From Bacteroidales bacterium (lineage in GTDB: Bacteria; Bacteroidota; Bacteroidia; Bacteroidales; VadinHA17), in the NCBI GenBank assembly GCA_016936695.1, contig JAFGXK010000248.1, positions 1 through 40,908 on the forward strand: a DNA stretch of 40,908 nucleotides, in the 5' to 3' direction. Positions within the stretch are counted from its first letter, which is position 1, and each line of letters starts with the position of its first letter. Below, in pieces: positions 50 through 22,510 of the stretch. Under the pieces are notes generated by a model. That model saw nothing but the letters and a program-made list of their open reading frames with translations. It had not been told where the DNA came from and made no database searches. A program made the position numbers and the translations under genes.

Positions 50-400
50 ATGAACGTAATATCCAATCAGCTTTACAGTGGATCGCTTAAGACGATAGTA
101 CTGAAATTATTGAAGGAAGAAGGTCAGATGCATGGATATGCGATGACCCGCCGGGTTGAAGAGATTACAGGAGGTAAAATAAAATTAACCTATGGAGCTC
201 TTTATCCTATCCTTCATAAGCTTGAACATGAGAAGGCAGTGGTTACTACTACGGGGATTCACAATAACCGTACGAGGGTATACTATTCGCTTACCCCCAG
301 GGGTGAATCGGTGGCGATCATGAAAATCAGGGAGCTGAAGGAGTTCATTGAGTCGCTTCAGAAGATTGTTGAACCGCAGGCCGGACTTAATTATGCCTGA
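50..400 (+). CDS. PadR-family transcriptional regulator
   Basis: 116-aa ORF with a PadR winged-helix signature (MHGYAMTRRVEEITGGKIKLTYGALYPILHKLEHEKAVV ... YYSLTPRG). The ATG at 50 lies 27 nt after an exact TAnnTTTG box. The stop (398-400) overlaps the ATG (393) of the next gene. Confidence 0.9.
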   Translation: MNVISNQLYSGSLKTIVLKLLKEEGQMHGYAMTRRVEEITGGKIKLTYGALYPILHKLEHEKAVVTTTGIHNNRTRVYYSLTPRGESVAIMKIRELKEFIESLQKIVEPQAGLNYA

Positions 401-1838
401 GCTTACCATATATGATATTGAAAGGATTGCAGGCGACGTAAGAAGCCAGGATATCATTTTCCCTCATCTTGCTGATGAACTTCTCGATCATATATGCTGT
501 GATGTGGAGTATGAGATGGATAATGGGCTGACTTTCGTTGAGGCCTATGCAAGGGTGAGGCAAAAGATAGGCAAAAGGCGGTTGAAGGAGATTCAGGAGG
601 AAACACTTTATGCTACAGACTCAAAATACAGAATCATGAAAACAACAATGAAGTTATCCGCAGTCGCGGGCACTATTTTGTTCGGCGTTGCCGCAATGTT
701 CAAGATCCAGCACTGGCCGGGTGCCGGGATAATGCTGACTCTCGGTGCGCTGATCCTGACATTTCTGTTCATGCCATCAGCCCTCGTTGTTCTCAGGAAA
801 GAAACAAGAAGCAGGAAAAGACTGATTCTGTTTATATCCGCTTTTCTGTCAGCAGGTCTTTTCATAACCGGGATACTTTTCAAGATCCAGCACTGGAACG
901 GAGCTGGTCCGTTACTAATACTGGCGGGCATTGTCGTGGTGTTTCTGTTAATTCCATCACTCCTGTCGGCTGCTTTACAGAATCCTGAAAACGCTTCCCT
1001 CAGACCTGTTTTTATAACAGGTGCAATTGGGATGGCAGCCTTTTTTACCGGATTTCTTTTCAAGATCATGCACTGGCATGGTGCCGGTATCCTTCTTCTG
1101 TGTGGATTATCGGTTATCTCCATTATCGTGCTGCCATGGTATACATGGTTGAAATGGAAGGATGAAAAGCATGTCAGGCCTGAATTCATTTTTCTGATAG
1201 CCGGATTGCTCTCAGTAATAATGCCTGCAGCGCTGTTGAACCTTAATCTCCAGCGTTCGTTTGATGAGGGTTACTTCACAAACCTTGAAGAGCAACAGGC
1301 TCTTTATAAGTGCATATTCCAGATCAAGGGTGAGTTACTGGCTTCTTACAGGGACTCTTCGGCCTATGAACTCATGAGGGAACTCGATTCAAGGACAGGC
1401 GGTCTGCTGGATGTTATAGCATCTGTCGAGAAGAAAATGGTGGCCCAAGCAGAGGGAGAACCCGGTAATCCTGTTGCTTATCCCTCACAGGTGGTACAGG
1501 CTGAAGCCGGCCCTGAGATCAGATTCCGCCAGCTTTCCTTCCCTTTTCATACTTCTCCGGTCCATGAATTTCTTGTGGCCGGAACTGAATCACGGGATGC
1601 CCTTGATAAAGCGATTCAGGAATACCGGTACTGGCTTTCAGCAAAAATCCCGGCTGACATCTGGAACGAGGTCGACAGGATGCTTGATATTTCAATGTTT
1701 CTCTCGGTTCCGGCTGGCAGGAATAAACGAAGCTCCATGCTTTCGGGACTGCATTCGCTGGCTGTCATGAAGAACAGTATTCTTACTGTTGAACAATATG
1801 CATTGAAAAAACTTGCAGAAAATGGTAATCCATTATAA
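393..1838 (+). CDS. 7-TM membrane protein of unknown function: soluble N-terminal head, 3 GldL-like TM-hairpin repeats, then a GldM-like anchor helix and C-terminal extracytoplasmic domain
   Basis: The ORF-track start at 348 is a TTG inside padR. The in-frame ATG at 393 (MPELTIYDIE...) overlaps the padR stop by 8 nt and is preferred. Three 60-aa modules each carry FKI[QM]HW[PNH]GAG between two hydrophobic helices. A seventh TM helix (FIFLIAGLLSVIMPAALLNLNL) is followed by about 190 aa without TM segments. Confidence 0.75.
   Translation: MPELTIYDIERIAGDVRSQDIIFPHLADELLDHICCDVEYEMDNGLTFVEAYARVRQKIGKRRLKEIQEETLYATDSKYRIMKTTMKLSAVAGTILFGVAAMFKIQHWPGAGIMLTLGALILTFLFMPSALVVLRKETRSRKRLILFISAFLSAGLFITGILFKIQHWNGAGPLLILAGIVVVFLLIPSLLSAALQNPENASLRPVFITGAIGMAAFFTGFLFKIMHWHGAGILLLCGLSVISIIVLPWYTWLKWKDEKHVRPEFIFLIAGLLSVIMPAALLNLNLQRSFDEGYFTNLEEQQALYKCIFQIKGELLASYRDSSAYELMRELDSRTGGLLDVIASVEKKMVAQAEGEPGNPVAYPSQVVQAEAGPEIRFRQLSFPFHTSPVHEFLVAGTESRDALDKAIQEYRYWLSAKIPADIWNEVDRMLDISMFLSVPAGRNKRSSMLSGLHSLAVMKNSILTVEQYALKKLAENGNPL
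636..1175 (+). repeat. Intragenic tandem repeat, 3 x 180 bp (60-aa TM-hairpin module)
   Basis: The core 18-mer TTCAAGATCCAGCACTGG occurs at 699 and 879, and the variant TTCAAGATCATGCACTGG at 1059. Spacing is exactly 180 bp each time. Protein-level alignment of the modules is clear. Confidence 0.85.
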
Positions 1839-1849
1839 ATCTTCCTTAC

Positions 1850-2209
1850 ATGAAACAAAAAATTTATATACTGGGACTGGCAACCGCAATAATTGTATTC
1901 CTTGGAACACTGTTCAAGGTCAATCACTGGCCGGGTGCTGCTATATTGCTTGTTAGTGGAATTTCAATACTGGTCTTTGTCTTTATGCCGCTGGCACTTG
2001 TCAGCAGCTATAAAGCTGAAGGCGATAAAGGTAAAAGGTTATTGTACATTGTAACCTGGCTTACATCCTTAGTGGTTTTTACGGCCATGCTAAGCAAGAT
2101 CCAGCACTGGCCTGGTTCGGGCTTGCTGATGCTGGTTTCCATTCCTTTCCCTTTTGTAGTTTTCCTGCCTGTCTTTCTGATGTCCCGGCGGGGAAACACA
2201 AAGGACAAT
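1850..2209 (+). repeat. Intragenic tandem repeat, 2 x 180 bp, same 60-aa TM-hairpin module family
   Basis: TTCAAGGTCAATCACTGG at 1913 and AGCAAGATCCAGCACTGG at 2093 are exactly 180 bp apart. Module starts resemble those of the previous gene (MKQKIYILGL and GKRLLYIVTW versus MKTTMKLSAV and KRLILFISAF). Confidence 0.85.
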
Positions 2210-2782
2210 ATTTACAATACAGTGAGTGTTTTGTTCCTCCTGATGATAATATCATGCTTCACCGGTCTTCTTGCCCTTAATGTTTCAAGGGACAAGATGG
2301 TCGATAGTTATACCGTTGTGCATAACTATTTCAGGTCGTCTGAAGCAGCTGAAAATCTTGAGATCAGCAGTCAGTCTCCTGCCGTTCAGCTGATTGATAA
2401 AATGATAATAATGACTCAGAAATACAGGGATTTGTATCCTGGTAATTCCGGTTATTCCCCCGACATGTGGAAAGGCGAACCGGGACCTTATCAGGGTTCC
2501 TGGTTATCTCAGAATAACATCATAAGGTTCGGGAAGGAAAAGGAGGACATTCATTCCGATTTGTTGTCAGGATTGGGGGATCTGGTTTCAATGCTTGAAA
2601 AAACCCCGGGTTGTGAGTCCCTCGCCGCCGCCGCTCCTTCTGTCTTCAACCTGAGAAAGACCCCCGGCGGAAATTACAACTGGGATTCTGATCTGATCCT
2701 GGCTCCGACTCACCCCTGGCTGCTGGTATATCTTACCGGACTTGAGAATAACCTACGGATGATGAAGGTGTCAGTAAAATGA
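1850..2782 (+). CDS. 5-TM membrane protein of unknown function: 2 GldL-like TM-hairpin repeats, then a GldM-like anchor helix and C-terminal domain; paralog of the preceding gene
   Basis: 310-aa ORF starting 11 nt after the previous stop. Two 60-aa modules carry FKVNHWPGAA and SKIQHWPGSG. A fifth TM helix ends ...FTGLLALNVSRDK, which resembles the GldM N-terminus ...AMLAMNVSKEV. About 165 aa of non-TM C-terminal domain follow. Confidence 0.75.
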   Translation: MKQKIYILGLATAIIVFLGTLFKVNHWPGAAILLVSGISILVFVFMPLALVSSYKAEGDKGKRLLYIVTWLTSLVVFTAMLSKIQHWPGSGLLMLVSIPFPFVVFLPVFLMSRRGNTKDNIYNTVSVLFLLMIISCFTGLLALNVSRDKMVDSYTVVHNYFRSSEAAENLEISSQSPAVQLIDKMIIMTQKYRDLYPGNSGYSPDMWKGEPGPYQGSWLSQNNIIRFGKEKEDIHSDLLSGLGDLVSMLEKTPGCESLAAAAPSVFNLRKTPGGNYNWDSDLILAPTHPWLLVYLTGLENNLRMMKVSVK

Positions 2783-2925: not shown

Positions 2926-4236
2926 ATGAAAAATGGAATAATGATTTTTGGCGTATTCTTCCTCCTGACAACCGCACTTCAGGCCCAGCAGGACAGTGTC
3001 TGGACACTGGAAGAATGCATCACCCATGCCCTGGAGAAGAATATCCAGGTAAGAAAGAGTGAAATCTCGAATGAGAGATACCAGTATTATGCCGATCAAT
3101 CAAGGGCCCAGCTGTTTCCTTCGGTAAATGCTTCGCTGTTACAGAATTACAACTGGAGCAAGGCGTCCGGCGGATCAGGGTACAATGGAATGAACGGTTC
3201 AAACGTGTCGATGAATTCATCGGTCACCGTTTTCAACGGATCGAGGCTGACGAACCAGATTAAGCAGGCTGAGCTTGATATTCAGGCAGGACAGTATTCG
3301 CTCGAGATCATTAAGGAATCTATCAGCCTCAGCATTATGAATGCCTATCTCCAGGTGCTCTATGCCGGTGAACAGGTGAGGAATACCGAAAGGCAGATTG
3401 AGTCGACCACGGGCCAGGTTGAGCTGGCTGCAGAAAGGCTGGCCATCAGGCTTATATCACAGGCCGACTATGCCCAGGTGAGATCGCAGCTTGCAAGTGA
3501 GAAGCTCAATCTGGCAAACGCCCGCAGCCAGCTTGCCATAGCCAGGGTGAACCTTGAACAGCTGATGGAACTTCCTGTCAGCGATGATTTCGAGATTGCT
3601 TTTCCTGATCCGGAAGAGATGGTTAACCAGAACCGGAAGCCTGATGTGGCTGAAGTATATATGACTGCCCTCGGAATAAAGCCCCAGGTAAAGAATGCAG
3701 AGATAAACAAGGAAATAGCAGCCCTGGATGAAAAGATAGCCAGAGCAGGATACTTTCCTGTTCTTTCGGCCAGCGCAGGAGCCGGCACCAGTTATTCGAG
3801 CATGATGACTGATCCTTATTTCGATCAGATCAACAACGGGATTACACCTTCGCTCGGTCTCTCTCTCTCCATCCCGATTTATCAGAGGAAGCAGGTCAGG
3901 ACCAGTGTTGCCGTTGCTCAGCTGAGTTACCAGGATGCAGGGCTGAGTGAGTTGAACACTCGTAATGAACTTAGGAAAAGCATTGAACAGGCCTGCCTTG
4001 ATGTAATTTCAGCTCAGGCCGATTATGAGGCAAGCGTCGAGAATTACCAGGCAACAAGCGAGTCGGCTGCTCTCTCCGATGAGAAGTTCAGACAGGGAAT
4101 AATCAACTCGGTCGATTACCTTGTCTCCAAAACAAACCTTATCCTGGCCGAGAGTAACCTGCTGCAGTCAAAGTATAATATGATATTCAGCTATAAGGTT
4201 CTCGATTTCTATTCAGGAATCCCATTGTCATTATAA
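2926..4236 (+). CDS. TolC-family outer-membrane efflux protein
   Basis: 436 aa with a signal peptide (MKNGIMIFGVFFLLTTALQAQQ). The opening (LTLEECITHALEKNIQVRKSE) is typical of OEP/TolC proteins. It has a two-repeat coiled architecture and ends YKVLDFYSG. Confidence 0.85.
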   Translation: MKNGIMIFGVFFLLTTALQAQQDSVWTLEECITHALEKNIQVRKSEISNERYQYYADQSRAQLFPSVNASLLQNYNWSKASGGSGYNGMNGSNVSMNSSVTVFNGSRLTNQIKQAELDIQAGQYSLEIIKESISLSIMNAYLQVLYAGEQVRNTERQIESTTGQVELAAERLAIRLISQADYAQVRSQLASEKLNLANARSQLAIARVNLEQLMELPVSDDFEIAFPDPEEMVNQNRKPDVAEVYMTALGIKPQVKNAEINKEIAALDEKIARAGYFPVLSASAGAGTSYSSMMTDPYFDQINNGITPSLGLSLSIPIYQRKQVRTSVAVAQLSYQDAGLSELNTRNELRKSIEQACLDVISAQADYEASVENYQATSESAALSDEKFRQGIINSVDYLVSKTNLILAESNLLQSKYNMIFSYKVLDFYSGIPLSL

Positions 4237-4258
4237 AATTAAAGTAATACTAAAACCA

Positions 4259-5512
4259 ATGAAGAAGAAGGCATTAATAACGGCAGGCCTTGTTGCAGCA
4301 ATCATACTTGTTTTGCTTTTCCTGAAACCTTTTCAGGCGAAAAAGGCCGGATACACTTTCGAAACAGTGAAGGTTGAGAAAGGCAACATAACCAATTCGG
4401 TTACAGCCACCGGAACTCTCGAAGCGATAACCACTGTTGTGGTAGGTACCCAGGTGTCGGGTATTATCGAACATGTATATGTCGATTTCAACGATAATGT
4501 AAAGCAGGGACAGGTTCTTGCCCGGCTCGACGAGACACCTCTCAGGGCCCAGGTTGAGCAAAGCCAGGCTTCAGTCGACCAGGCACAGGCTCAGATTAAT
4601 TACCAGGAGGCAACCTATAACAGGATGAAGGCCCTTTACGAGAAAAACCTGATAGCACAGGCCGACTACGATCAGGCTCTCTACAACTACCAGAATTCAA
4701 AGGCGTCGCTCAGTAACGCAAAGTCGGCTTTCGACCGCGCGAAGGTCAACCTTGCTTACGCAACAATCTATTCACCTATCGACGGGGTTGTCCTTAACAG
4801 AGCTGTTGAAGAGGGGCAGACAGTTGCCGCAAGTTTCAATACCCCGGAGATGTTCACAATTGCCAACGACCTTACCCGCATGGAGGTTCAGGCAAGCGTC
4901 GACGAAGCCGACATAGGCCAGGTAAAACTCGGTCAGAGGGTTCAGTTCACCGTCGATTCCTATCCGGATGACAAGTTTGATGGCGAAGTGTCGCAGATTA
5001 GGCTCAAACCCGTGACTACCAATAACGTTGTGACCTACGTAGTTATATTCAGTGCTCCTAATCCTGAGAAGAAACTTATGCCAGGCATGACGGCAAGCGC
5101 CACAATTTTTATCCAGGAGAAACAGAATACTCTTGTTCTCTCGGGCAAAGCCCTGCGGTTTACCCCCGATTCCGACTACATGATGGAGATGATGAAGGAA
5201 GTTATGAAAGATGGTTTTACCGATGGCATGCCGGCGCCTCCGGCAGGAACGGAAGCCAATGCAATTCAGGGTGAATTTCAGGCGTCTGGTGCCTTCCCTG
5301 CTCTTCCTGAAGGTGTTAAAAATGTCTGGCTCAAGGATGAGAATAACAAACTGAAACCGGCAATGGTTACTATCGGAGTTGAGAATGGTTCGAATGTGGA
5401 GATACTGTCGGGACTTAATGAGGGCGACGAGGTGGTTGTGGCAATGTCCAACCCTGACAAGAAATCATCTGCTGGAACAAGAGGCGGTCCGGGTGGTCCG
5501 ATGCCCTTTTAG
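4259..5512 (+). CDS. Efflux periplasmic adaptor (HlyD/MacA-type membrane fusion protein)
   Basis: 417 aa with an N-terminal TM anchor. It carries a lipoyl/hairpin/barrel pattern (VSGIIEHVYVDFNDNVKQGQVLARLD ... YATIYSPIDGVVLNR ... FTVDSYPD) and a Gly/Pro-rich tail. Confidence 0.85.
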   Translation: MKKKALITAGLVAAIILVLLFLKPFQAKKAGYTFETVKVEKGNITNSVTATGTLEAITTVVVGTQVSGIIEHVYVDFNDNVKQGQVLARLDETPLRAQVEQSQASVDQAQAQINYQEATYNRMKALYEKNLIAQADYDQALYNYQNSKASLSNAKSAFDRAKVNLAYATIYSPIDGVVLNRAVEEGQTVAASFNTPEMFTIANDLTRMEVQASVDEADIGQVKLGQRVQFTVDSYPDDKFDGEVSQIRLKPVTTNNVVTYVVIFSAPNPEKKLMPGMTASATIFIQEKQNTLVLSGKALRFTPDSDYMMEMMKEVMKDGFTDGMPAPPAGTEANAIQGEFQASGAFPALPEGVKNVWLKDENNKLKPAMVTIGVENGSNVEILSGLNEGDEVVVAMSNPDKKSSAGTRGGPGGPMPF

Positions 5513-5549
5513 CATGAAGCGACATGCATAACAATAAATTCAATATGTC

Positions 5550-6308
5550 ATGGACAGCTCAATAATAGAGATCAGGCAGCTCCGGAAGGACTATCATGTA
5601 GGTGAGATGGTAGTACATGCACTGAGGGGAGTCGACCTTCAGATAAGGGCGGGGGAATTTGTGGCTATAATGGGAATGAGCGGATCGGGTAAATCGACCA
5701 TGCTTAATATACTCGGATGCCTCGACCTGCCTACCGCAGGCGACTATTTCCTCGATGGTGTCAATGTGAACACGATGAACAGGGATGAACTGGCCCGGCT
5801 GAGGAACCGGAAACTGGGATTTGTTTTCCAGTCCTATAACCTTCTTCCCAGGACCACTGCCCTCGAGAATGTGGAACTGCCGCTGTTCTACAATCCAAAA
5901 ATGAAATCAAGGGAACGCCTCGAAAGGGCAGTCAACGCACTTGAAGCGGTGGGGCTCAAGGAAAGGATGGGTCATATGCCCAACCAGCTCTCCGGAGGTC
6001 AGCAGCAAAGGGTTGCCATAGCCCGGTCGCTTGTCAACGACCCGGTGCTGATACTCGCCGATGAACCTACGGGAAACCTCGATACCAGAACCTCGGTCGA
6101 GATCATGGAATTGTTTCAGTCTCTGAATGAAAAGGGAAGAACCATAGTATTCGTGACTCACGAACCCGATATCGCAAGGTTTGCAACCAGGAATGTTCTT
6201 TTCAGGGACGGTAAAATCCAGCGGGAACAGATGGTGAACGACCGTCTCTTTGCTACTGAAGTGCTGCTTACACTCCCGGTGGAAAACATTGAAGAATTGG
6301 AAAACTGA
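5550..6308 (+). CDS. ABC transporter ATP-binding protein, MacB/LolD-type
   Basis: Walker A GMSGSGKST, Q-loop, signature LSGGQQQRVAIARSL, Walker B ILADEPTGNLD and H-loop VTHE are all present. Confidence 0.95.
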   Translation: MDSSIIEIRQLRKDYHVGEMVVHALRGVDLQIRAGEFVAIMGMSGSGKSTMLNILGCLDLPTAGDYFLDGVNVNTMNRDELARLRNRKLGFVFQSYNLLPRTTALENVELPLFYNPKMKSRERLERAVNALEAVGLKERMGHMPNQLSGGQQQRVAIARSLVNDPVLILADEPTGNLDTRTSVEIMELFQSLNEKGRTIVFVTHEPDIARFATRNVLFRDGKIQREQMVNDRLFATEVLLTLPVENIEELEN

Positions 6309-6323
6309 TAAAAGGATCAGAAA

Positions 6324-7544
6324 ATGAATATCAAGAATCTGTTGAAAATAGCGGTCCGCGCACTTGTCAGGAACAAGCTCAGGGCTGTCCTCACCATGCT
6401 GGGGATCATTATCGGTGTGGCTTCGGTTATCGCAATGCTTGCAATAGGGGAAGGTTCCAAAAAGAATATCCAGGATCAGATGTCATCCATGGGAACCAAC
6501 CTGATAATGATAATGCCCAACATGCAGGCAAGGGGAGGGGTAAGCCTTGGCGCATCAAGCTCCATGGCGCTGAAAATGAGCGATGTAGAAACCCTGCGCA
6601 ATGAAGCCGTTTACCTTGCTGAAGTCTCGCCCCAGGTGACTGCCAGCGGACAGGTGATCTACGGTAACCAGAACACCCAGACCACCGTATACGGGGTGAG
6701 CGAGGAATACCTTGACATCAGGAAACTCGAGATCGGCACCGGAAGGTTATTCACCTCAAATGAGGTGAGAGGGATGTCAAAAGTTTGCATTCTTGGAACA
6801 ACTGTCGTGGAAAACCTCTTCGGCGAAGGTGCCGATCCTGTCGGGATTTCGATAAGGATCAAGAACCTTCCCTTTCAGGTGATCGGTGTTCTTGAAGACA
6901 AGGGGGAAAGCGGAATGGGACAGGACCAGGATGACCTGATTCTTGCCCCCTGGACAACTGTTCAGCGCCGGCTTGCTGCGATCGACTACATTAATGGAAT
7001 CTACGCATCTGCAGTAAGCGAGGAAAAAAGCACAGCTGCAGCCGACGAGGTTACGGAAATACTCCGCAGAACCCATAAACTGAAAGAGTCGGCAGAGGAT
7101 GACTTCAGGGTGATGTCGCAGTCAGAACTCCTTGAGACGGTTTCATCAATAACCGACATACTGACCTACCTGCTTGGAGCAATAGCAGGGATCTCACTGC
7201 TTGTGGGCGGAATAGGCATAATGAATATTATGTTTGTCTCGGTTACTGAACGAACCAGAGAGATAGGACTGAGAATGTCGATCGGCGGAAGAAGCCGCGA
7301 CATACTGAGGCAGTTTCTTGTTGAATCAATAATAATGAGTATATTAGGAGGAGCTCTCGGCGTGGTCTTCGGCTACCTGATCGCACAGGGAGCAGGCACA
7401 CTGATGAACAGTCCGGTTGTTGTTACAACACAATCTGTAGTGCTTGCATTTGCAGTGTGCTTCGTGATAGGAGTGTTCTTTGGCTGGTATCCCGCCCGCA
7501 AGGCAGCCAGCCTCAATCCGATTGATGCATTAAGGTATGAATGA
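6324..7544 (+). CDS. ABC transporter permease, MacB/FtsX-type (4 TM with a periplasmic domain)
   Basis: 406 aa. The N-terminus is LRNKLRAVLTMLGIIIGVASVIAM. A roughly 230-aa periplasmic domain is followed by a C-terminal FtsX region (GGIGIMNIMFVSVTERTREIGLRMSIG ... YPARKAASLNPIDALRYE). Confidence 0.9.
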   Translation: MNIKNLLKIAVRALVRNKLRAVLTMLGIIIGVASVIAMLAIGEGSKKNIQDQMSSMGTNLIMIMPNMQARGGVSLGASSSMALKMSDVETLRNEAVYLAEVSPQVTASGQVIYGNQNTQTTVYGVSEEYLDIRKLEIGTGRLFTSNEVRGMSKVCILGTTVVENLFGEGADPVGISIRIKNLPFQVIGVLEDKGESGMGQDQDDLILAPWTTVQRRLAAIDYINGIYASAVSEEKSTAAADEVTEILRRTHKLKESAEDDFRVMSQSELLETVSSITDILTYLLGAIAGISLLVGGIGIMNIMFVSVTERTREIGLRMSIGGRSRDILRQFLVESIIMSILGGALGVVFGYLIAQGAGTLMNSPVVVTTQSVVLAFAVCFVIGVFFGWYPARKAASLNPIDALRYE

Positions 7545-8664
7545 CGTCAGGACGAAACCTGGATTCTTCAGGACAAAAGCAATTAAGGTGATACTTCACC
7601 TTATTGTCTGGGCGATCTTTATCGGATTGCCTCTTTACTTCATTTCCAGATATCCCGTGGCAAAGGATTTCCTGTGGGTCTACTATATCAACGCACTTAT
7701 CTGGGGATCGATCTTTTACATAAACTACCTGTACCTGGTGCCTGTATATTTTTTCAGGGAGGGTAAATTAAGATATTATCTCTATGCTCTCCTTTTGCTT
7801 GTTGGTTTTTACGTGGTTTCAGACGTTTCAAACAGGATGGTCCTGAAGAACATACCTTCCATCAACCAGGAAGGCCGAAATGAGGTGGATGCTCCCCGGG
7901 GCGGCCCCGGCAATGAGCCGCCTCCGCCTCCTGGCAGACCATTCAGGGACCCTTTCAGAAGAGTTCATATTTTCAATTATTTCCCGACTGCGCTTTTTAT
8001 CATGTTCCTTTCGCTGGGGCTGAAAGTTCTTGAAAGACAGTCGCAGATAGAAGAGTTGAAGAAAGAGATAGAAAAGGAAAAGCTTAATTCGGAACTGGCT
8101 TTCCTGAAAAATCAGATAAGCCCCCATTTCTTTTTCAATACTCTCAATAATATCTATTCCCTGATCGGAATCAACCAGGATGATTCGCAGGCGGCGGTAC
8201 TGAAGCTGTCGAAGCTGATGAGATATCTGATCTATGATTCTGAAAAGGGAAATACGATGCTGAGCCATGAAATAGAATTCATGAACAACTACATCGATCT
8301 GATGAAACTCAGGATGAGCGACAGGGTTGACCTGAATGTACGCTTCCCCGAAGAATACAAAGACAGGATCATCCAGCCGCTGCTTTTCATCCCGTTCGTC
8401 GAGAATTCATTCAAGCACGGAATAAGCTACCGCGAAAAGTCATTCATTGAAATAAGTATGGAAGCGGAGGCGGATTCTATAGTATTCAAATGCTCCAACT
8501 CCCTGCACTCCGGCGGGGAGAAAGGGGCAGAATCCGATACCGGAGGCATTGGACTTGAGAACGTCAGGAAAAGACTGAACCTGCTCTTTCCCGGACATCA
8601 TGAACTCAGGATCAACAAATCGGATAAGCGCTTTGATGTATTCCTCGAAATAAAAACAGCCTGA
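7537..8664 (+). CDS. LytS/YehU-family sensor histidine kinase with a membrane-only sensing region
   Basis: 375 aa with four N-terminal TM helices and a Pro/Gly-rich linker (GGPGNEPPPPPGRPF). The His_kinase motif is FLKNQISPHFFFNTLNNI and a GHKL region follows (FVENSFKHG ... GGIGLENVRKRL). The ATG at 7537 overlaps the permease stop as ATGAATGA. Confidence 0.85.
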   Translation: MNDVRTKPGFFRTKAIKVILHLIVWAIFIGLPLYFISRYPVAKDFLWVYYINALIWGSIFYINYLYLVPVYFFREGKLRYYLYALLLLVGFYVVSDVSNRMVLKNIPSINQEGRNEVDAPRGGPGNEPPPPPGRPFRDPFRRVHIFNYFPTALFIMFLSLGLKVLERQSQIEELKKEIEKEKLNSELAFLKNQISPHFFFNTLNNIYSLIGINQDDSQAAVLKLSKLMRYLIYDSEKGNTMLSHEIEFMNNYIDLMKLRMSDRVDLNVRFPEEYKDRIIQPLLFIPFVENSFKHGISYREKSFIEISMEAEADSIVFKCSNSLHSGGEKGAESDTGGIGLENVRKRLNLLFPGHHELRINKSDKRFDVFLEIKTA

Positions 8665-9377
8665 TGATCAGGACAATTGCCGTTGATGATGAGCCTCTGG
8701 CGCTTCAGCTGGTGACCGGTTATATCAAAAAGACTCCGGGACTGGAGCTGGCAGGAAGCTTTGACAATCCTCAGGAAGCAATGGAGTTTGTGATGAATGA
8801 AAAAGTGGACCTCATATTCATCGATATCCAGATGCCCGACCTTACCGGTATTGAATTTACCAGAGCGCTTACCGGCGGACCCAGGGTCGTCTTTACAACA
8901 GCCTATGAAAAATACGCCCTCGAAGGATTCAAGCTCGATGTCGTGGATTATCTCCTGAAGCCTTTCAGCTATGAGGAATTCCTGAAGGCTGTCGGAAAGG
9001 CTGCCAGGCTTATCCGGATTGAACAGGGCGAACCGGAAAAGGTGGAATCAAACAGTGAGTTCCTGTTCCTGAAGTCGGATTACAAAATAAGACGGATCAA
9101 CTTCAACGATATACTCTATATTGAAGGACTGAAGGACTACGTGAAGGTTTACACGGCAGGCGAATCAAAGCCGTTGCTCTCCCTTATAACAATGAAACTT
9201 CTCGAAGCCAAGCTTCCGGCGGCAAAGTTCATGAGGGTGCACAGGTCATTCATCGTGAACCTCGAAAGAATAGAGACCATTGAAAGGAGCAGGATAGTCT
9301 TCGGGAAAACCTATATCCCGGTTAGTGAACAATACAAGGAAAAATTTCAGGAATTTCTTGATAAGAATTTTTTATAA
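8664..9377 (+). CDS. LytTR-family response regulator
   Basis: The receiver domain shows IAVDDEPLAL ... DLIFIDIQMPDLTG ... LKP. The C-terminal LytTR domain shows ILYIEGLKDYVKVYT ... FMRVHRSFIVNLERI. The start overlaps the kinase stop by 1 nt (TGATG). Confidence 0.9.
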   Translation: MIRTIAVDDEPLALQLVTGYIKKTPGLELAGSFDNPQEAMEFVMNEKVDLIFIDIQMPDLTGIEFTRALTGGPRVVFTTAYEKYALEGFKLDVVDYLLKPFSYEEFLKAVGKAARLIRIEQGEPEKVESNSEFLFLKSDYKIRRINFNDILYIEGLKDYVKVYTAGESKPLLSLITMKLLEAKLPAAKFMRVHRSFIVNLERIETIERSRIVFGKTYIPVSEQYKEKFQEFLDKNFL

Positions 9378-15002: not shown

Positions 15003-15962
15003 TTATTCGAGAAGAAGGGCTGCAGCCCCGATCAGACCGGCATCTGCTCCTGCCTCTGACCTTACAATGGCTATCGGGTCGTAGATCATATCCCGTGCAA
15101 GTTCATGGAACTTTTCCAGTATCCTGTTGAAATACAAGTCACCAAGATTCATAAGCCCGCCGCCAAGGATGATCAGCGGAGGATTGAACACCTGGAAAAT
15201 ATTATATATTCCTATTCCAATGTAATCGGCACAATCCCTTACAATTTCCATACTGACAGGATCACCCGCTTCGAGCCCCTGCAGGATAAGCTGACCATCG
15301 ACCCTGCTGTAGTCAAAATCCCCGGGAAGTGGCAGACTGGTCTGCATGCCGTCTTCAATCTTTTTTCTGAACCTCGCGGGAAGGGTTAGTCCGCAGGCAC
15401 ATCCCATGAGACAGCCCCTGTTCCCGCAGGTACAAATGAAATCGCTGTCCGGATCGACAATCGTATGCCCGAACTCGCCTGCAGTTCCCGTCATTCCCCG
15501 GTATATCTTCCTGTTCAGGACTATTCCGGCCCCGATGCCTGAACTGACTGTAAGGAATATCAGATCGTCGTAGCCTTTTCCTGCTCCGAATTTAAGCTCA
15601 CAGAATGCCTGTGCGTTGGCATCATTGTCGAGCCTTACCGGAATCCTGAAGTTTCCGGCAAGAGTATCACGAAGGGGATAGCTCTTGAATCCCTTCAGGT
15701 TTGAAGTGGTTATTGTGTAACCATCCCTGTAGCGCACATGACCGGGGAAGCCCACTCCAATTCCCTCCAGATCCGTTTCATTCAACCCATTGGACGAAAT
15801 AAGCTGCTTGATAATCAGTGTTATATAATTAACAATCCCCTCCTCATCGAGTGCAACATGATCGTACACCACTGATTTACCGAGGATCCTTCCGTCGGGA
15901 TAAACCAGTCCGGCAGAAAGCTTGGTGCCTCCAAGGTCGACTCCGCAAAGTATCTTTTCCAT
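15003..15962 (-). CDS. ROK-family sugar kinase (no HTH domain)
   Basis: The ORF-track start at 15992 is a TTG overlapping the upstream gene. The ATG at 15962 gives MEKILCGVDLGGTKL, a typical ROK/glucokinase N-terminus. The ROK zinc motif is GHTIVDPDSDFICTCGNRGCLMGC. The gene starts 4 nt after the GRE stop. Confidence 0.85.
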   Translation of the reverse strand: MEKILCGVDLGGTKLSAGLVYPDGRILGKSVVYDHVALDEEGIVNYITLIIKQLISSNGLNETDLEGIGVGFPGHVRYRDGYTITTSNLKGFKSYPLRDTLAGNFRIPVRLDNDANAQAFCELKFGAGKGYDDLIFLTVSSGIGAGIVLNRKIYRGMTGTAGEFGHTIVDPDSDFICTCGNRGCLMGCACGLTLPARFRKKIEDGMQTSLPLPGDFDYSRVDGQLILQGLEAGDPVSMEIVRDCADYIGIGIYNIFQVFNPPLIILGGGLMNLGDLYFNRILEKFHELARDMIYDPIAIVRSEAGADAGLIGAAALLLE

Positions 15963-15966
15963 ATTA

Positions 15967-18381
15967 TTAAAGTGATTGTTCGGTTCGTGCAATTATATCA
16001 TCCTGGGTGTCGGGTGAAAGGGTGGTGAAAAAAGCTGAGTAACCTGCCACACGAACAACCAGGTCCCGGTGATTCTCAGGATTCTTTTTTGCGTCGAGCA
16101 GGGTTGCCCTCGATACGATATTGTACTGGACATGCCAGCCTTTGAGGGTTGCAAAGAAGGTTCTCAGAATCGAAATGAGTTTTTGTTTTTGTGTCTCATT
16201 TGAAAGCGAGGAGGGTGACAGTTTCTGATTGAGCAGAACACCACCGAGTATTTTCTCCGTAGGTAGTTTCGAGACTGACTTGAAAACTGCAGTAGGGCCG
16301 AGGCTGTCGGTGCCCGATGTGGGAGAACAGCCTTCGGCAACCGGGGTGAAGGCCTTTCTTCCGTCAGGCGTTGCCGGGACAACCGACCCGGAAGGGACAT
16401 TTGCTGAGATGCTTGATGTACCTGCATAATAGCCGCAGCCTGCCGGACCTCTGCCAAAACGGGTGGTGTGGTATTTTTCCAGCTCTTCAATGTAGCACAT
16501 ATAGGCCTCTGCGAGCAGGTTGTCGACATAATCGTCGTCGTTGCCGTACTTTGGAGCGAAATTCAGCAGCGTCTGCCTTATCCTCTCGCCATCGTGCCCT
16601 TCAAAGTCGTTCCGTATATAATTCATCAGATCCGCCTTGCTGATCCTGTTCTCCTCAAAGACAAGCTTTTTGATTGCGGCCATCGAATTGCCAAGATTTG
16701 CTATTCCGACCTGGAGGCCTGATATGAAATCGTAAACCGAGCCTCCCTCCTTGATAGTCTTTCCCCGGGTAATGCAGTCGTCGACAAAGGCGGAGCAAAG
16801 GATATCGGGAACAAGTTCCTCAAGAGCCAGATCGGCGGCTGTGTCGATTTCCACCGAAGCTTTTGTATAAAGGCTCACCTGCTGTTTCCAGGCCGACATC
16901 AGGTCGCTGAAGTTCGTGAAATCCTCAAACTGCCCTGTGCCGGGGAAGAAGGTCTTGCCCGACATGGTGTCGAGACCATTGTTCATCGCCGCCAGGAAAA
17001 CACGCATGAAGTTCAGGAAACTCATACCGGTGCACCTGTAACCCCATTTACCGGGAACGGCGATTTCAATACAGCCGATCGCAGAATAGTTGTATGCATC
17101 CTCCTTCGCCACTCCGAGACCTATAAGTGAAGGGATCACAATTTCGTCGTTATTGAAGGCAGGCATGCCGAATCCCTTTCCTATAACGTCGATACAGCGA
17201 CTAAGAAATTCTGGGTTGATATTTTTATGGAACCTGACCGACAGATTGGGCTGGGTGAGTTTCATCCGGCCAACAGAATCAAGTATCAGGAAGCTGAGCT
17301 CATTTACGGCATCGTGTCCGTCAGTCGTCTGGCCGCCTATTGTCACGTTCTGGTACAGGGGCCCACCAGCTGAGAACCGGGTGTGAGACCACGATCTTAT
17401 CTTGTTGACCGACAGAAGTTTCAGCCAGGTGTTCTCAAAAAGTTCAAGGGCAAAATCAGAGGTAATCCTGCCTGCTGCCTTATCTTCCTCGTAAAACTTC
17501 AGCAGGTACTGGTCCATCCTTCCAAGCGAAACCGAATGTCCGTTGCTTTCGATCTGCAGGACAAGCTGAACAAACCAGGTAAGCTGAAGAGCTTCATAAA
17601 AACCTGAAGGGGGATTGTTTTTTATGTTCCTGCAGAAAGCGCTGATCTTCATAAGTTCTGATTTTCTGTCAGGGCTGGTGGCATGAATGGAGAGGTCCGA
17701 TGCAAGCCGTTCGTATCTTTGAATGAAAGACTGGAAGGACCTTATTCCCGTAGTCAGGGCACTGTAGAAATTCCTCTTTCTGATATATTCTTCGTCTGCT
17801 TCCGAAAGCTTCGATTCAGCCTTTACGATCTCTTCAAGGTATCCTTTCAGTCCGATTGCAAGAATTTTCTCAAGATTAACTGCAATATGTGCATCTCCCG
17901 AGGTCAGGTTTCCTTCAGCCCTGATGATTCCCGCATCATGTATTTCCCTGTTAAGCGGCGACATAAGGGAATATCCCTTTTCAATAAGTGTTTTTCCTTC
18001 CCAGTAAAGGCAGAGCTCACGCAATTCTTTCTTCTGTTCCTCAGAGACAAAAAAGGAATCACCCGGTCGTTTGTCAAATTCATCCAGTTCCTTTATGATC
18101 CATGCAGTGACGTATTCGGGGAAAATGGGAGCGGCCCTTAAAGCTGATGACTGGTTCCCAACAATAAGTTCGCCATCGTCGATGAAGATGGTCATCTCTT
18201 TCAGGGTTCTCTCCAGCGCATATGCCCGTTTCAGGATAACCGGTGTATCTTCATGTTCTCTGTATACTTCCGTATATATCCTGGCGCGTTCGGTGCAGAT
18301 AGTCGATCCGGACGAAAGAATCTTTTCTTTCAGTCCCGCAATCCTCCGGGTAATAATGGGCGATTCGGCAATTATTGTCAT
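15967..18381 (-). CDS. Glycyl radical enzyme, PFL2/'eliminase' class, substrate unknown
   Basis: 804 aa. The C-terminal glycyl-radical loop reads LVVRVAGYSAFFTTLSPDTQDDIIARTEQSL. The thiyl loop YSAIGCIEIAVPG has Cys-x-Glu rather than the Cys-Cys of PFL. The N-terminus is typical of PFL2 proteins (ICTERARIYTEVYREHEDTPVILKRAYALE). Confidence 0.9.
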   Translation of the reverse strand: MTIIAESPIITRRIAGLKEKILSSGSTICTERARIYTEVYREHEDTPVILKRAYALERTLKEMTIFIDDGELIVGNQSSALRAAPIFPEYVTAWIIKELDEFDKRPGDSFFVSEEQKKELRELCLYWEGKTLIEKGYSLMSPLNREIHDAGIIRAEGNLTSGDAHIAVNLEKILAIGLKGYLEEIVKAESKLSEADEEYIRKRNFYSALTTGIRSFQSFIQRYERLASDLSIHATSPDRKSELMKISAFCRNIKNNPPSGFYEALQLTWFVQLVLQIESNGHSVSLGRMDQYLLKFYEEDKAAGRITSDFALELFENTWLKLLSVNKIRSWSHTRFSAGGPLYQNVTIGGQTTDGHDAVNELSFLILDSVGRMKLTQPNLSVRFHKNINPEFLSRCIDVIGKGFGMPAFNNDEIVIPSLIGLGVAKEDAYNYSAIGCIEIAVPGKWGYRCTGMSFLNFMRVFLAAMNNGLDTMSGKTFFPGTGQFEDFTNFSDLMSAWKQQVSLYTKASVEIDTAADLALEELVPDILCSAFVDDCITRGKTIKEGGSVYDFISGLQVGIANLGNSMAAIKKLVFEENRISKADLMNYIRNDFEGHDGERIRQTLLNFAPKYGNDDDYVDNLLAEAYMCYIEELEKYHTTRFGRGPAGCGYYAGTSSISANVPSGSVVPATPDGRKAFTPVAEGCSPTSGTDSLGPTAVFKSVSKLPTEKILGGVLLNQKLSPSSLSNETQKQKLISILRTFFATLKGWHVQYNIVSRATLLDAKKNPENHRDLVVRVAGYSAFFTTLSPDTQDDIIARTEQSL

Positions 18382-18382
18382 T

Positions 18383-19279
18383 TCAATTCATTATTTTGGC
18401 TGTCAGACCTTTGTGTTCAGCATATTCAACACAGGGTGCAATTTCGGATTTCTCAACATTCCGTGCATTACCAAAAACATAGTCTTTCCCGAGAAACAGG
18501 TATTTTTCCTTTGCAAGCGAATGGAAGGGGATGAAATGGATCTCACTTGAATTATTAAGGTCAGATGCAAAATCAATAATGGAACGGATCTCGGGTTCGG
18601 AGAAATTGAAATCAGGAACGACGGGCACCCTGATCACGAATTGCGCTCCGCTGGCATCAAGCTTTCTGAAGTTTTCCATTACCAGTCCTGCATTGCCTCC
18701 GGTAAAGAAGGAAAACTTTTCAGGATCGGTGTGTTTCAGGTCGGCAAGAAAGACATCCACCAGTCCAAGGCATTTTTCGATGTTTTCCCATGGCACATGA
18801 AGAGATGTCTCGGCCGATATATGGATATCCTTTTTTTTCAGTTCTGCAAGCAATTCAATCAGTTCGCCGTCCTGGGCAAAAGGTTCGCCGCCTGAAAGGG
18901 TGACTCCGCCACCGCTCATTTCGTAGAACGGAATGTCCTTTTCAATTTCGCTCATTATACTGTTGATGCTCATGTTCTCACCTGTAATAGTCAGGGCTCT
19001 CGACGGACAAATATCCCTTAGCGCATCAAAGCATGTGATGTTTTCCCTGTCAATCACCAGACCGTCTCCCTCCGGCCTTATGCTGCCGCCGCTGTTCTTT
19101 ATGCAATCTCCGAACTTATGGCAAAGCCTGCTGTCAAACATTATTGAAGGGAAGGGATCAATGCTTTCGGGATTGTTGCACCACAAACACCTGAGCGGGC
19201 ACCCCTTGAAGAAAATGTTGGTCCGGACCCCAAGGCCATCGTGCAGGCAGAATCGTTGTATGTTAAAAACAGTCAGCAA
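18383..19279 (-). CDS. Glycyl-radical enzyme activating protein (radical SAM)
   Basis: 298 aa. The N-terminus is VFNIQRFCLHDGLGVRTNIFFKGCPLRCLWCNNPE (CxxxCxxC). A SAM-binding GGVTLSGGEP motif is present. The ferredoxin-like insert has only four Cys. The start appears to be the TTG at 19279, because there is no in-frame ATG upstream of the conserved N-terminus. Its stop is 1 nt from the GRE start. Confidence 0.9.
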   Translation of the reverse strand: MLTVFNIQRFCLHDGLGVRTNIFFKGCPLRCLWCNNPESIDPFPSIMFDSRLCHKFGDCIKNSGGSIRPEGDGLVIDRENITCFDALRDICPSRALTITGENMSINSIMSEIEKDIPFYEMSGGGVTLSGGEPFAQDGELIELLAELKKKDIHISAETSLHVPWENIEKCLGLVDVFLADLKHTDPEKFSFFTGGNAGLVMENFRKLDASGAQFVIRVPVVPDFNFSEPEIRSIIDFASDLNNSSEIHFIPFHSLAKEKYLFLGKDYVFGNARNVEKSEIAPCVEYAEHKGLTAKIMN

Positions 19280-19442
19280 AATGGGAATGATTAACCTGTC
19301 AGTATTTAAAGGGTAAAAGATACTTAAAAATTCAAATAATAAATTATCATCCGGGTGTTTCAGACAATGGTTAAAGATAAATATTTAGATAAAATAAAAG
19401 ATTTAGTTTATTTTGCCGTTATATAGACACGGATTTTTTGGC

Positions 19443-20579
19443 ATGGATATTACAAATACGATTCACGATAAAATCAGGCGGGAGCACCTTTTGTTTGTTT
19501 TCAGGGGGGAGATAACGGAGAAGAATTCCCTTCCTTTGCTTACCCTGCTTGAAAATGAAATGAAGGAGGACTCTTACGACCTTTCGGGGCGAAAGAGACT
19601 CTTCATGTATGTTCTCGAAAGTCTTCAGAATATTGTAAAGCATGGCGATCAAAAAGGCCATGCCGTTATGCCGCTTGTTTCTTATTCAAAAACTGATGAC
19701 GGTTACACGATAACAACAGGGAACGTGATCACGGAAGAACAATCCGGCTTACTCAGGGACAAGCTTGAAAAGGTCAATTCACTTGATGCCATTGATATCA
19801 AGGCTCTTTACAGGCAGATACTTGAAACAACCGGATTCAGTGAAAAAGGGGGAGCAGGTCTCGGTCTGCTGGAGATGGCCCTGAAAACAGGAAACAGGCT
19901 GGATTTTGATTTCATTCCGATAGGAGGAGGATTGTCTTATTTCGTTCTGAGCAAGACAGTCGATTCTTCGGGACTTGGCAGGACCAACGGCAGCGCCCGG
20001 GAAAAATTTGACGGCAGTCCGGTGCTGGAGTTTGAACGACTTCTGGCCCGGAACAATGTTCACATGACCTGGTCGGGTCATATAACATCCGGGATTGGGG
20101 ATGATGTACTGTCAATCACCGAGGCCAGACTTTCGGATGAGGATGTGGATGCACGAATCAGGAGAAAGGTATTTAATATTATGGTGGAGATCCTTGAAAA
20201 TGTTTCAAGATACAACCCGGGCAAAGAAGCTGAGGAGAAATATGGATTACCTCTTGCAATGGTACGATTCGAGAGTGGCAGGTTTGTCCTGACTACAGGA
20301 AATCTGATATCAGGATTGATGATCGGAGAACTTAAGCAAAAATTAGACAACATAAACAGTTTCAGCCAGGGCGAACTCAAGACCTTGTTTTTCGCATCAT
20401 TATCGGCCCAGTCGATAGAAACCGACAGTACCGGAAATATGGGACTGATTTCCATGGCAAGGAAATCGGGGGGCAAGCTGGAATACCAGTTTAAAAAGGT
20501 AAATGAGGAGTACTCTTATTTCATGCTCACGGTAAGAGTTGAGAATACAAGCGGATCACCTGAAGCTCTTCAGATATAG
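19443..20579 (+). CDS. Tandem-duplicated SiaB-like (DUF6272 / GHKL anti-sigma-kinase-like) protein
   Basis: The ORF-track start at 19413 is a TTG, and the ATG at 19443 (MDITNTIHDK) is preferred. The two halves align to each other. Examples are LLFVFRGEIT/VHMTWSGHIT, RKRLFMYVLESLQNIVKHG/RRKVFNIMVEILENVSRYN, YTITTGNVI/FVLTTGNLI and GGAGLGLLEMALKTGNRLDFDF/STGNMGLISMARKSGGKLEYQF. The family assignment is from memory of SiaB-type sequences. Confidence 0.55.
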   Translation: MDITNTIHDKIRREHLLFVFRGEITEKNSLPLLTLLENEMKEDSYDLSGRKRLFMYVLESLQNIVKHGDQKGHAVMPLVSYSKTDDGYTITTGNVITEEQSGLLRDKLEKVNSLDAIDIKALYRQILETTGFSEKGGAGLGLLEMALKTGNRLDFDFIPIGGGLSYFVLSKTVDSSGLGRTNGSAREKFDGSPVLEFERLLARNNVHMTWSGHITSGIGDDVLSITEARLSDEDVDARIRRKVFNIMVEILENVSRYNPGKEAEEKYGLPLAMVRFESGRFVLTTGNLISGLMIGELKQKLDNINSFSQGELKTLFFASLSAQSIETDSTGNMGLISMARKSGGKLEYQFKKVNEEYSYFMLTVRVENTSGSPEALQI

Positions 20580-21302
20580 GCCATTGCCGTCCCATTCGGC
20601 ATAGCTTCCATCGCTGAACCAGTCGCCAAGGAAGATTATCCTGCCATTACTGCCGTTATTGAATGTCATAGGCAGGTGACGGTGACCGAAAATGAAATAA
20701 TCTATATTGTCTTTTTTCATTACCGACCGTGAATACCTGATAAGGTCTTCTCTGTCTTCACCCATGAAATCCTGTGTTATTCCCTTTGCAAACCGCGAAT
20801 GTTGCGACCAGTTCTGGCCTATACCGATTCCGATCCTGGGGTGGAGCATTGAATAAAGAACACGTAAGGATTTGTTTCTGAAGATCCAGAGAAGAATCCT
20901 GTATCCGGTGCTTTTGCTTCCAAGTCCTTCTCCATGGGCAATATGGAACTTTTTTCCATCAATGTTGCAGGTATAGGGGGATGTATGAACAATCATCCCG
21001 CATTCGGCCGACAGGTAGTCTCTGACCCACATGTCGTGGTTTCCCGTGAAAAAGTGGACCGGTATACCTGAATCTGTAATCGAGGATACGGTTCCCAGGA
21101 ACCTTGTGAATCCGCGGGGGACAACCAGCTTGTATTCCCACCAGAAATCAAAGATGTCACCCACCAGGTAAATCTCCCTTGCTTCAGGTGCGACGGTGGT
21201 GAGCCACCGGACAACCATCTTTTCCCTCACGGCAGGATCCTTTCCCGCCTTCAGCCCGAGATGAAAATCGGAAGCAAAGAATATTTTTCCTGTTTCTTTC
21301 AA
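20556..21302 (-). CDS. lpxH: UDP-2,3-diacylglucosamine diphosphatase
   Basis: 248 aa with calcineurin-like metallophosphoesterase motifs in the LpxH arrangement (FFASDFHLG ... YLVGDIFDFWWEY ... FTGNHDMW ... FGHRH). The start is the TTG at 21302, overlapping the upstream stop as ATTGA. The 3' end overlaps the convergent SiaB-like gene by 24 bp. Confidence 0.85.
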   Translation of the reverse strand: MKETGKIFFASDFHLGLKAGKDPAVREKMVVRWLTTVAPEAREIYLVGDIFDFWWEYKLVVPRGFTRFLGTVSSITDSGIPVHFFTGNHDMWVRDYLSAECGMIVHTSPYTCNIDGKKFHIAHGEGLGSKSTGYRILLWIFRNKSLRVLYSMLHPRIGIGIGQNWSQHSRFAKGITQDFMGEDREDLIRYSRSVMKKDNIDYFIFGHRHLPMTFNNGSNGRIIFLGDWFSDGSYAEWDGNGLYLKSFR

Positions 21303-22477: not shown

Positions 22478-22510
22478 ACAAAATTTCCGTTCAGGTGCAG
22501 TGGTATAAGG

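Follow-up and report, generated by a model that had tools for sequence, protein, structure and literature searches.

A padR-linked gene pair of uncultured Bacteroidales with GldL-type hairpins and GldM-type anchors, proposed as a signalling unit

The padR-P1-P2 locus

The stretch of DNA analysed here (the window) comprises positions 1 to 40,908 of contig JAFGXK010000248.1, assembly GCA_016936695.1, from the metagenome-assembled genome of a Bacteroidales bacterium of the VadinHA17 lineage. At its 5' end lie three genes on the same strand, a padR gene and two genes for membrane proteins, designated P1 and P2 in this study. Open reading frames of the window place padR at 50-400, P1 at 393-1838 and P2 at 1850-2782, which confirms the coordinates given for the two membrane protein genes by an earlier reading made from the letters alone (the sequence-only reading). 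P1 consists of 481 amino acids (aa) from an ATG at 393, and P2 of 310 aa. We report that, as judged by profile and fold comparison, both proteins are composed of transmembrane (TM) hairpins of the kind found in GldL, followed by a TM helix and a periplasmic domain of the kind found in GldM, and that the N-terminus of P1 resembles HAAS, a small helical domain of PadR-linked membrane sensors. The features of the locus are listed below, all on the forward strand, with the evidence for each in brackets.

1-49: AT-rich promoter and leader 5' of padR (conserved; the window and the contig begin here)
50-400: padR, 116-aa PadR-family winged-helix transcription factor (Pfam PF03551, E 7.6e-18)
393-400: overlap of padR stop and P1 start, 8 nt, ATGCCTGA (sequence)
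393-620: P1 residues 1-76, cytoplasmic three-helix HAAS-like domain (AlphaFold2 (AF2) model, motif, sub-threshold NCBIfam match)
636-809: P1 hairpin 1 (aa 82-139), loop FKIQHWPGAG (GldL_N, motif, hydropathy)
816-989: P1 hairpin 2 (aa 142-199), loop FKIQHWNGAG (GldL_N, motif, hydropathy)
996-1169: P1 hairpin 3 (aa 202-259), loop FKIMHWHGAG (GldL_N, motif, hydropathy)
1179-1250: P1 seventh TM helix (aa 263-286, ...AALLNLNLQ), assigned as counterpart of the GldM TM helix (hydropathy, hhalign, Foldseek)
1251-1838: P1 periplasmic helical domain (aa 287-481) and stop, assigned as a divergent GldM domain 1 (Foldseek, intermediate sequences)
1850-2023: P2 hairpin 1 (aa 1-58), loop FKVNHWPGAA (GldL_N, motif, hydropathy)
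2030-2203: P2 hairpin 2 (aa 61-118), loop SKIQHWPGSG (GldL_N, motif, hydropathy)
2207-2287: P2 fifth TM helix (aa 120-146, ...GLLALNVS), assigned as counterpart of the GldM TM helix (hydropathy, profile search, hhalign)
2288-2782: P2 periplasmic helical domain (aa 147-310) and stop, assigned as a divergent GldM domain 1 (hhalign, Foldseek, profiles)
2789-2810 (with a T-rich tail) and 2844-2862: two terminator-like hairpins 3' of P2 (consensus scan)

The best NCBIfam match of the padR product was a model for an acidobacterial PadR paralog. The padR stop codon occupies 398-400 and P1 starts at 393; because of this 8-nt stop/start overlap the two genes are probably translationally coupled, as the sequence-only reading had proposed. 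Among 85 related loci, padR was found immediately 5' of P1 in 80, and the overlap measured 8 nt in 75 of those 80. A TAnnTTTG box (TATCTTTG, at 16-23), read as a Bacteroidetes-type -7 box from the promoter consensus of that group, lies 5' of padR, and the element ...ATATCTTTGTTATATATAAG... is kept at that place in nearly all related loci. The 1-49 element may also contain a PadR operator; a clear palindrome was not found there. An inverted-repeat scan for such an operator returned one imperfect 10-nt pair in the window, and the same scan of three related loci covered the P1 start and not the region upstream of padR, for which it is uninformative. The two terminator-like hairpins 3' of P2 probably mark the end of a padR-P1-P2 operon; they were called by a consensus scan alone, which gave 4 sites where 2.7 are expected.

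GldL-type hairpins in P1 and P2

A hydropathy scan predicted seven TM segments in P1 and five in P2. The motif [FS]K[IV]xHWxG[AS][GA] was located at nt 699, 879 and 1059 in P1 and at nt 1913 and 2093 in P2, exactly where the sequence-only reading had placed it, with a spacing of 60 aa within each protein. The Pfam model GldL_N (PF22827, cut-off 24 bits) scored 61.5 bits on P1 (E 8.5e-17), where it covered three stretches, and 43.7 bits on P2 (E 3.3e-11), where it covered two. Additionally, a profile was built from 48 hairpins of the P1 and P2 families, and its five best matches in the PDB were all five solved GldL/PorL chains (E 3.7e-8 to 0.02). On the strength of the PF22827 matches and of GldL/PorL as the best PDB matches, the hairpins of P1 and P2 are, by profile comparison, GldL N-terminal domains, and the GldL likeness claimed for them earlier is borne out. 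The motifs that the sequence-only reading gave for the two motor proteins were also correct: GldL of 6ys8 reads GALFKITHFEIGPL, and GldM reads ...FIAMLAMNVSKEV.

P1 and P2 are not full-length GldL equivalogs, as the hairpins run into further hairpins and the cytoplasmic domain of GldL is absent. With the model for full-length GldL, TIGR03513, whose cut-off is 68.3 bits, the scores were 36.7 and 25.9 bits, and only profile positions ~6-49 of 247 were matched. The short basic linkers, which had been interpreted as cytoplasmic connections between hairpins, do lie on the cytoplasmic side, but MSRRGNTKD joins hairpin 2 of P2 to the anchor helix, and the inter-hairpin linker of P2 is SSYKAEGDKGKR.

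GldM-type anchor helices and periplasmic domains

For comparison with the region after the last hairpin, a GldM_N alignment was built from the solved GldM/PorM chains and from GldM fragments annotated by Pfam. With hhalign, the anchor helix and C-terminus of the P2 family matched this alignment over 170 collinear columns (P 3e-5, prob 73%), running from LALNVSKE to the last helix and thus over the whole domain. The hidden Markov model (HMM) of the P2-family C-terminus was also searched against PDB sequences, where it found the TM segment of GldM 7sau_A (SvfsaLLaLnVske / LVLTALLALNISKD), a weak match with E 1; its best matches, designed helical repeats, were judged compositional and rejected. 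Comparison of the P1-family and P2-family C-termini with each other by hhalign gave only a spurious 19-column match.

AF2 models of P1 and P2 (predicted local distance difference test, pLDDT, 81 and 79, respectively) were compared by Foldseek with 350,542 PDB chains. The six best matches of the P1 model were all GldM/PorM chains (E 0.03-0.2, prob 1.00, target TM-score 0.29-0.63), the matching chains including the TM helix, and the best match of the P2 model was GldM 7saz_A. The Foldseek E-values across both models are modest (0.03 to 0.4).

When the hairpin profile was run as an HMM against the whole library, more divergent P1-like and P2-like proteins were returned, which served as intermediate sequences. 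An HMM made solely from true GldM matched 59 proteins of the family (best E 5e-27), and among these 59, 40 were also matched by the P1 C-terminal profile and 15 by the P2 C-terminal profile, many of them over the full length. The cut-off of Pfam PF12081 is passed by four P1-like proteins (P0371, P0384, P0415 and P0454) and two P2-like proteins (P0432 and P0469); all of them except P0384 are matched by the C-terminal profiles of the window families too, P0432 and P0469 over their full length by that of the P2 family. P0371 matches PF12081 over residues 291-473 (61.9 bits, E 1.1e-16) and is aligned to P1 of the window by BLASTP over the full length with 34% identity (E 1e-94).

Based on four independent lines, namely profile-profile comparison, fold comparison, intermediate sequences and Pfam scans of relatives, the region after the last hairpin in both P1 and P2 is homologous, as profiles and predicted folds indicate, to the TM helix and domain 1 (D1) of GldM. 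The sequence-only reading had suggested a GldM-like anchor; this holds and reaches further, as hhalign, Foldseek and the intermediates extend the homology to the whole periplasmic domain. The amphipathic stretches at the C-termini of P1 and P2 correspond to the last helix of GldM D1. P1 stops 194 residues and P2 163 residues past the anchor helix, the AF2 models show a single helical domain in this part, and counterparts of GldM D2-D4 are absent from both proteins.

The periplasmic domain of P1 carries a conserved insert at window positions ~1446-1568 (aa ~352-392), ESEGEPGxPV...QTExGPEI..LSxPFH..PV, which is partly predicted as short beta-strands and is missing from the ~439-aa homologues P0041 and P0085. 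The insert may be a ligand or partner site.

Motor residues

In the motor, GldL Glu49 and Tyr13 and GldM Arg9 and Tyr17 are essential residues of the membrane core, Glu49, in TM2, being the proton carrier, and two invariant residues of the GldL loop, a Lys and a His, contact the periplasmic domain of GldM (bioRxiv 10.1101/2020.05.11.089193). The corresponding positions were counted in 1408 hairpins of 554 family proteins. The loop residues are kept in ~98% of the hairpins (K23 in 1386 and H26 in 1384), and by this measure the GldL-GldM periplasmic interface appears to be preserved in P1 and P2. At the column aligned to Glu49, an acidic residue was found in none of the 1408 hairpins, the column holding L, P, G, I or V, and the TM cores of the family are essentially uncharged. 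A conserved acidic residue is absent from every TM helix of the family. The window proteins have no Asp or Glu in any of their five second helices, and the earlier caveat about a missing proton-carrying residue is borne out.

Counted back from NVS/NLQ, the places corresponding to GldM R9 and Y17 hold hydrophobic or varying residues in the two anchor families. The P1 anchor has an invariant Pro and Gly, but its HVRPEF stretch is not conserved in the family. Each anchor is tied to the preceding hairpin through a linker of ~10-15 residues. With the proton path lost, the anchors tethered and no domain beyond D1, it is very unlikely that ions drive a continuous rotation of the pair or that it delivers work to the outer membrane. 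The suggestion of the sequence-only reading that the pair may be a sensor and not a motor is strengthened by the absence of the Glu, Arg9 and Tyr17.

N-terminal domain of P1 and the HAAS-PadR class

The HAAS-PadR dyad consists of a small helical cytoplasmic domain, N-terminal to assorted multi-TM sensors, and a stand-alone PadR that always adjoins it; it has been proposed as an alternative to two-component signalling (PMC11237479). The HAAS domain, DUF1700/DUF1129/DUF1048-like in Pfam terms, has three helices, the third kinked, and a GxP motif, and its fusions include 'various uncharacterized 6TM, 4TM, and 2TM domains', among which GldL and GldM are not named (PMC11237479). In the AF2 model of P1, the N-terminus forms helices at residues 6-18, 24-43 and 48-75, and the domain precedes seven TM helices. 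The NCBIfam model perm_prefix_1 (NF038403) was the top match for this region in 8 of 10 family members, always sub-threshold (E 6e-4 to 0.07). The strict GxP motif of HAAS is not conserved in the P1 family, the consensus being G-x-R-R.

Because of the HAAS-like P1 N-terminus and the conserved overlap with padR, padR-P1-P2 probably fits the described HAAS-PadR signalling class, with a sensor module that has not been described. The coupling to PadR proposed by the sequence-only reading thus stands as a conserved link; it is not new in kind, since it fits the known dyad (PMC11237479).

The P1 N-terminus contains the motif D-H-[IV]-C-C-D-x-E-x-E at window positions 486-515 (aa 32-41), in which D32, H33, C35, C36, D37, E39 and E41 are invariant, and DH[IL]CC is also kept in the relatives termed type A and type B below. 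Two neighbouring cysteines with His, Asp and Glu close by point to a metal or redox site, possibly a signal input.

Conservation and sister architectures

Relatives were collected by a scan of one genome per species, which found 300; the best 80 of the 300 were all from metagenome-assembled genomes of Bacteroidales/Bacteroidota. The top matches of the hairpin-profile search alone fall into ~145 clusters at 50% identity. The hairpin HMM counted three hairpins in the first gene and two in the next in 83 of the 85 related loci, the other two being cut by contig ends, and the P1 and P2 genes are adjacent in all 83 complete loci. Since the architecture is present in every one of these, the hairpin repeat is not due to chance. 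Divergent loci (L118, L119, L121 and the P0384 contig) again have 3+2 hairpins in adjacent P1 and P2 genes, with GldM_N recognisable in both. The arrangement of 3+2 hairpins and 1+1 anchors was present in all 88 loci complete enough to judge. A P1-like gene without a P2-like gene was not seen where the contig permits judgement. Three-hairpin proteins that seemed to lack HAAS were considered as a separate architecture and rejected, as they are cut by contig ends or a scaffold gap.

Other architectures were followed by contig look-ups and a metagenome scan, and four types were distinguished.

Type A: PadR and one ~200-aa protein of HAAS and 2 hairpins alone (L107-L112, 6 loci)
Type B: PadR and one ~425-aa protein of HAAS, 2 hairpins and a clear GldM_N, E 1e-10 to 3e-27 (at least 14 loci)
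Type C, the kind found in the window: 3+2 hairpins and 1+1 anchors (all 88 judgeable loci)
Type D: HAAS, 4 hairpins and one TM helix, 355 aa (L086, one protein)

A PadR gene adjoins the type A and type B relatives too. Members of type B are among L085 and L092-L105, and in 7 long loci of this type a second hairpin gene was absent within 5 kb. If type B proteins dimerise through D1 like GldM, they would give a 4:2 assembly. The sequence-only reading had predicted conserved totals of five hairpins and two anchors for such loci; the totals are constant within the P1-P2 pair family (88 of 88) and fail in the wider family, where 2+1, 2+0 and 4+1 occur. Five hairpins are not a rule of the superfamily.

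In type B proteins (L085 and relatives), the true-GldM_N HMM gave a weak second match at the HAAS region, residues ~6-66, which is probably an artefact of helical composition.

A proposed GldLM-derived sensor

The reading that we favour, with moderate confidence, is that padR, P1 and P2 together form a signalling unit of the HAAS-PadR type, whose membrane sensor is made of GldLM (PorLM) parts and is not a motor. P1 and P2 would pair by way of the D1-like domains, in the manner of a GldM dimer, and the two anchor helices would pack against or inside the five hairpins. From the sequences, a GldLM-like P1:P2 heterodimer of 12 TM helices, a number equal to that of GldL5M2, is plausible. With tethered anchors and no ion-carrying residue, the assembly would be unable to turn continuously. 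A cue from the envelope or periplasm, acting on the D1-like heterodimer, would instead shift the anchors relative to the hairpins, and the movement may reach the HAAS domain through hairpin 1 of P1; in the AF2 model, the last HAAS helix (48-75) is followed almost directly by helix 77-105, the first of this hairpin. The hold of HAAS on PadR would then alter, PadR would be released or re-configured as in the model of PMC11237479, and transcription of the PadR regulon would change.

Several results weigh against this proposal. Neither P1 nor P2 of the window has a direct match to GldM in Pfam or NCBIfam at E<=1, and the true-GldM HMM finds neither of them at E<=10. With hhalign, the P1-family C-terminus reached a prob of just 1.2% against GldM_N, though collinear from the anchor helix, and for that reason the link between P1 and GldM is made through the intermediates and the fold comparison. 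The perm_prefix_1 matches of the N-terminus are all sub-threshold, at 13-19.5 bits against a cut-off of 30, and the Pfam models of the DUF1700/HAAS type gave no match to P1 at E<=1. On the regulatory side, a PadR operator was not identified by the quick inverted-repeat scan of the window, and a second copy of the padR-upstream element was not found in the window before the efflux operon that follows P2. Moreover, the PadR-HAAS relatives of types A and B have hairpins and anchors in a ratio of 2+0 or, in a single gene, 2+1; because they exist, five hairpins around two anchors are not required for signalling of this kind.

A stronger form of the proposal is that the P1:P2 heterodimer is a covalently concatenated, pseudo-symmetric GldL5M2 core that has become a receptor, in which five distinct hairpins would surround two distinct anchors under a D1-like heterodimer cap. 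A cue would drive a limited-angle twist of the axle, the reverse of the energy flow in the motor, and the twist would be read by HAAS holding or releasing PadR. The underlying idea, that two polypeptides could rebuild a 5:2 ring, came from the sequence-only reading; it is a reasonable reading, supported by the strict conservation of 3+2 and weakened by the 2+1 and 2+0 relatives, and we regard the concatenated core as possible but doubtful. If true, it would be the first example of a 5:2 rotary unit turned to signal transduction.

Alternatively, there may be no ring and core at all, the hairpins being a generic membrane-sensing module (e.g. for lipid or membrane stress) with no fixed copy number, and P2 serving next to P1 as an accessory or paralogous sensor. 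The variation in hairpin number among the PadR-HAAS relatives, with 2+0 in 6 loci, 2+GldM_N in at least 14 and 4+TM in one, speaks for such a module, and HAAS is known to be fused to many unrelated multi-TM modules (PMC11237479). Nevertheless, the 88 judgeable loci all keep strictly to the 3+2 pairing in spite of deep divergence, and each of the five hairpin positions bears its own conserved signature in the family alignments. The two loop residues in contact with GldM D1 in the motor, Lys and His, are ~98% kept, and both proteins retain the GldM TM helix with D1, which is the dimerising unit of GldM (PDB 6ys8, 6ey4). On balance, we consider a generic module unlikely, while giving it real weight.

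The pair could also act on the real GldLM/PorLM motor of the cell, for example as a decoy or regulator that mixes with GldL or GldM subunits, and would then report or control gliding or type IX secretion. Only the common folds and the interface residues kept in the GldL loop speak for such a role, which we rate as very improbable: genes of the T9SS (type IX secretion system) or of gliding are found neither in the 40.9-kb window nor beside the pair in related loci, and the gene pair supplies GldM-like partners of its own, so that an external one is not needed. The least probable explanation is that P1-P2 is a true ion-driven 5:2 rotary stator of two polypeptides, working like GldLM, MotAB or ExbBD, for although both parts are homologous to those of GldL and GldM and the counts of 3+2 and 1+1 are constant throughout the P1-P2 family, the Glu49 position is acidic in 0 of 1408 hairpins with TM cores almost free of charge, neither anchor has an equivalent of Arg9 or Tyr17, anchor-hairpin linkers of ~10-15 residues would, judging from the sequences, forbid continuous rotation, no D2-D4 shaft leads from D1 to the outer membrane and the GldL cytoplasmic domain is absent.

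Comparison with known systems

The proposed sensor shares with the solved GldLM/PorLM complexes (6ys8, 7sat, 7sau, 7sax, 7saz) a hairpin with an F-K-x-x-H-[WF] periplasmic loop, of which the Lys and His touching GldM are retained, a TM helix ending in LxLNVS that leads into a helical periplasmic D1, and a TM total that for P1 and P2 together equals the 10+2 of GldL5M2. In contrast to GldLM, P1 and P2 are two chains that each carry their hairpins in tandem, with a covalent connection to the GldM-like part; GldL Glu49, GldM Arg9 and Tyr17, the cytoplasmic domain of GldL and D2-D4 of GldM are lacking; P1 has in addition the N-terminal HAAS-like domain and the coupled padR, and a gene link to T9SS is absent.

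Like the HAAS-PadR systems (PMC11237479, mSystems 2024), the locus has a stand-alone padR 5' of, and coupled to, a gene for a helical domain with a multi-TM protein, and the same logic, in which the sensor alters the hold of HAAS on PadR, is proposed for both. It differs from the systems described there in that the sensor of P1 consists of GldL hairpins and the TM-D1 part of GldM, and in that a second subunit lacking HAAS, P2, is an obligatory neighbour. The ADOP-type FtsX permeases (NF038403, TIGR03433) have a PadR-adjoining prefix domain, which is the sole consistent family match, though a sub-threshold one, of the P1 N-terminus; their membrane part is FtsX/MacB and is unrelated to the GldL/GldM parts of P1. 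With MotAB, ExbBD, TolQR and ZorAB, the possible helix count of five around two is the only common point, and a sequence relationship is not claimed. Unlike P1 and P2, those complexes are made of separate polypeptides and rotate freely, and their inner helix carries an essential Asp.

In the literature on GldL with PadR and on GldL-like, GldM-like and GldLM homologues, no description of GldL-GldM fusions or of a link to PadR was found; Pfam already annotates both GldL_N and GldM_N on less divergent members of the family. The family shows the GldL and GldM parts, the core of the gliding/T9SS motor, in a setting away from that motor: they are fused, repeated, devoid of a proton path and linked to a transcription factor. 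Uncultured Bacteroidales carry this family widely. For the 'uncharacterised multi-TM' sensors known from HAAS-PadR systems it would supply a concrete structural ancestry, and the family offers a simple test of whether the 5:2 architecture has been reused for signalling. Should the heterodimer copy the 5:2 core, every position of the ring would have a distinct sequence, giving an asymmetric model of axle and ring mechanics that is favourable for single-particle work. Should it not, P1 and P2 would still constitute a new family of envelope-signalling sensors in Bacteroidota, with an efflux operon adjoining in about half of the loci.

Neighbouring genes and other features of the window

The genes 3' of P2 form an efflux and two-component cluster, assigned by Pfam.

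2926-9377, forward strand: TolC-like OEP, HlyD-type adaptor, ABC ATPase, MacB_PCD/FtsX permease, LytS-type histidine kinase and LytTR response regulator

The gene order of this cluster is the same in L001-L004. It was considered as a core part of the system and rejected, being found 3' of P2 in only ~42 of 85 loci; elsewhere, unrelated genes follow P2, seemingly trp, amt-glnK or others. Because of this distribution, the conserved unit is padR-P1-P2, and the presence of the efflux operon next to it is clade-specific at most. The MacAB-TolC-like operon may or may not be a regulatory target of PadR.

Several further loci were noted in the remainder of the window. On the minus strand, 15003-19279 encodes, in a row, a ROK-family protein, a PFL-like glycyl-radical enzyme of 804 aa and its radical-SAM activase. 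A 388-aa protein in which the uncharacterised domain DUF6272 occurs twice is encoded at 19413-20579, and two tandem paralogous genes, each for a DUF4369 and a thioredoxin-like (AhpC/TSA, TlpA-type) domain, occupy 21299-23719. A glycogen cluster at 23834-34845 (debranching enzyme, GT4, GH57 and branching enzyme) includes, at 28598-32821, a gene for a 1407-aa fusion of a glycogen-synthase domain, DUF3417 and an alpha-glucan phosphorylase domain.

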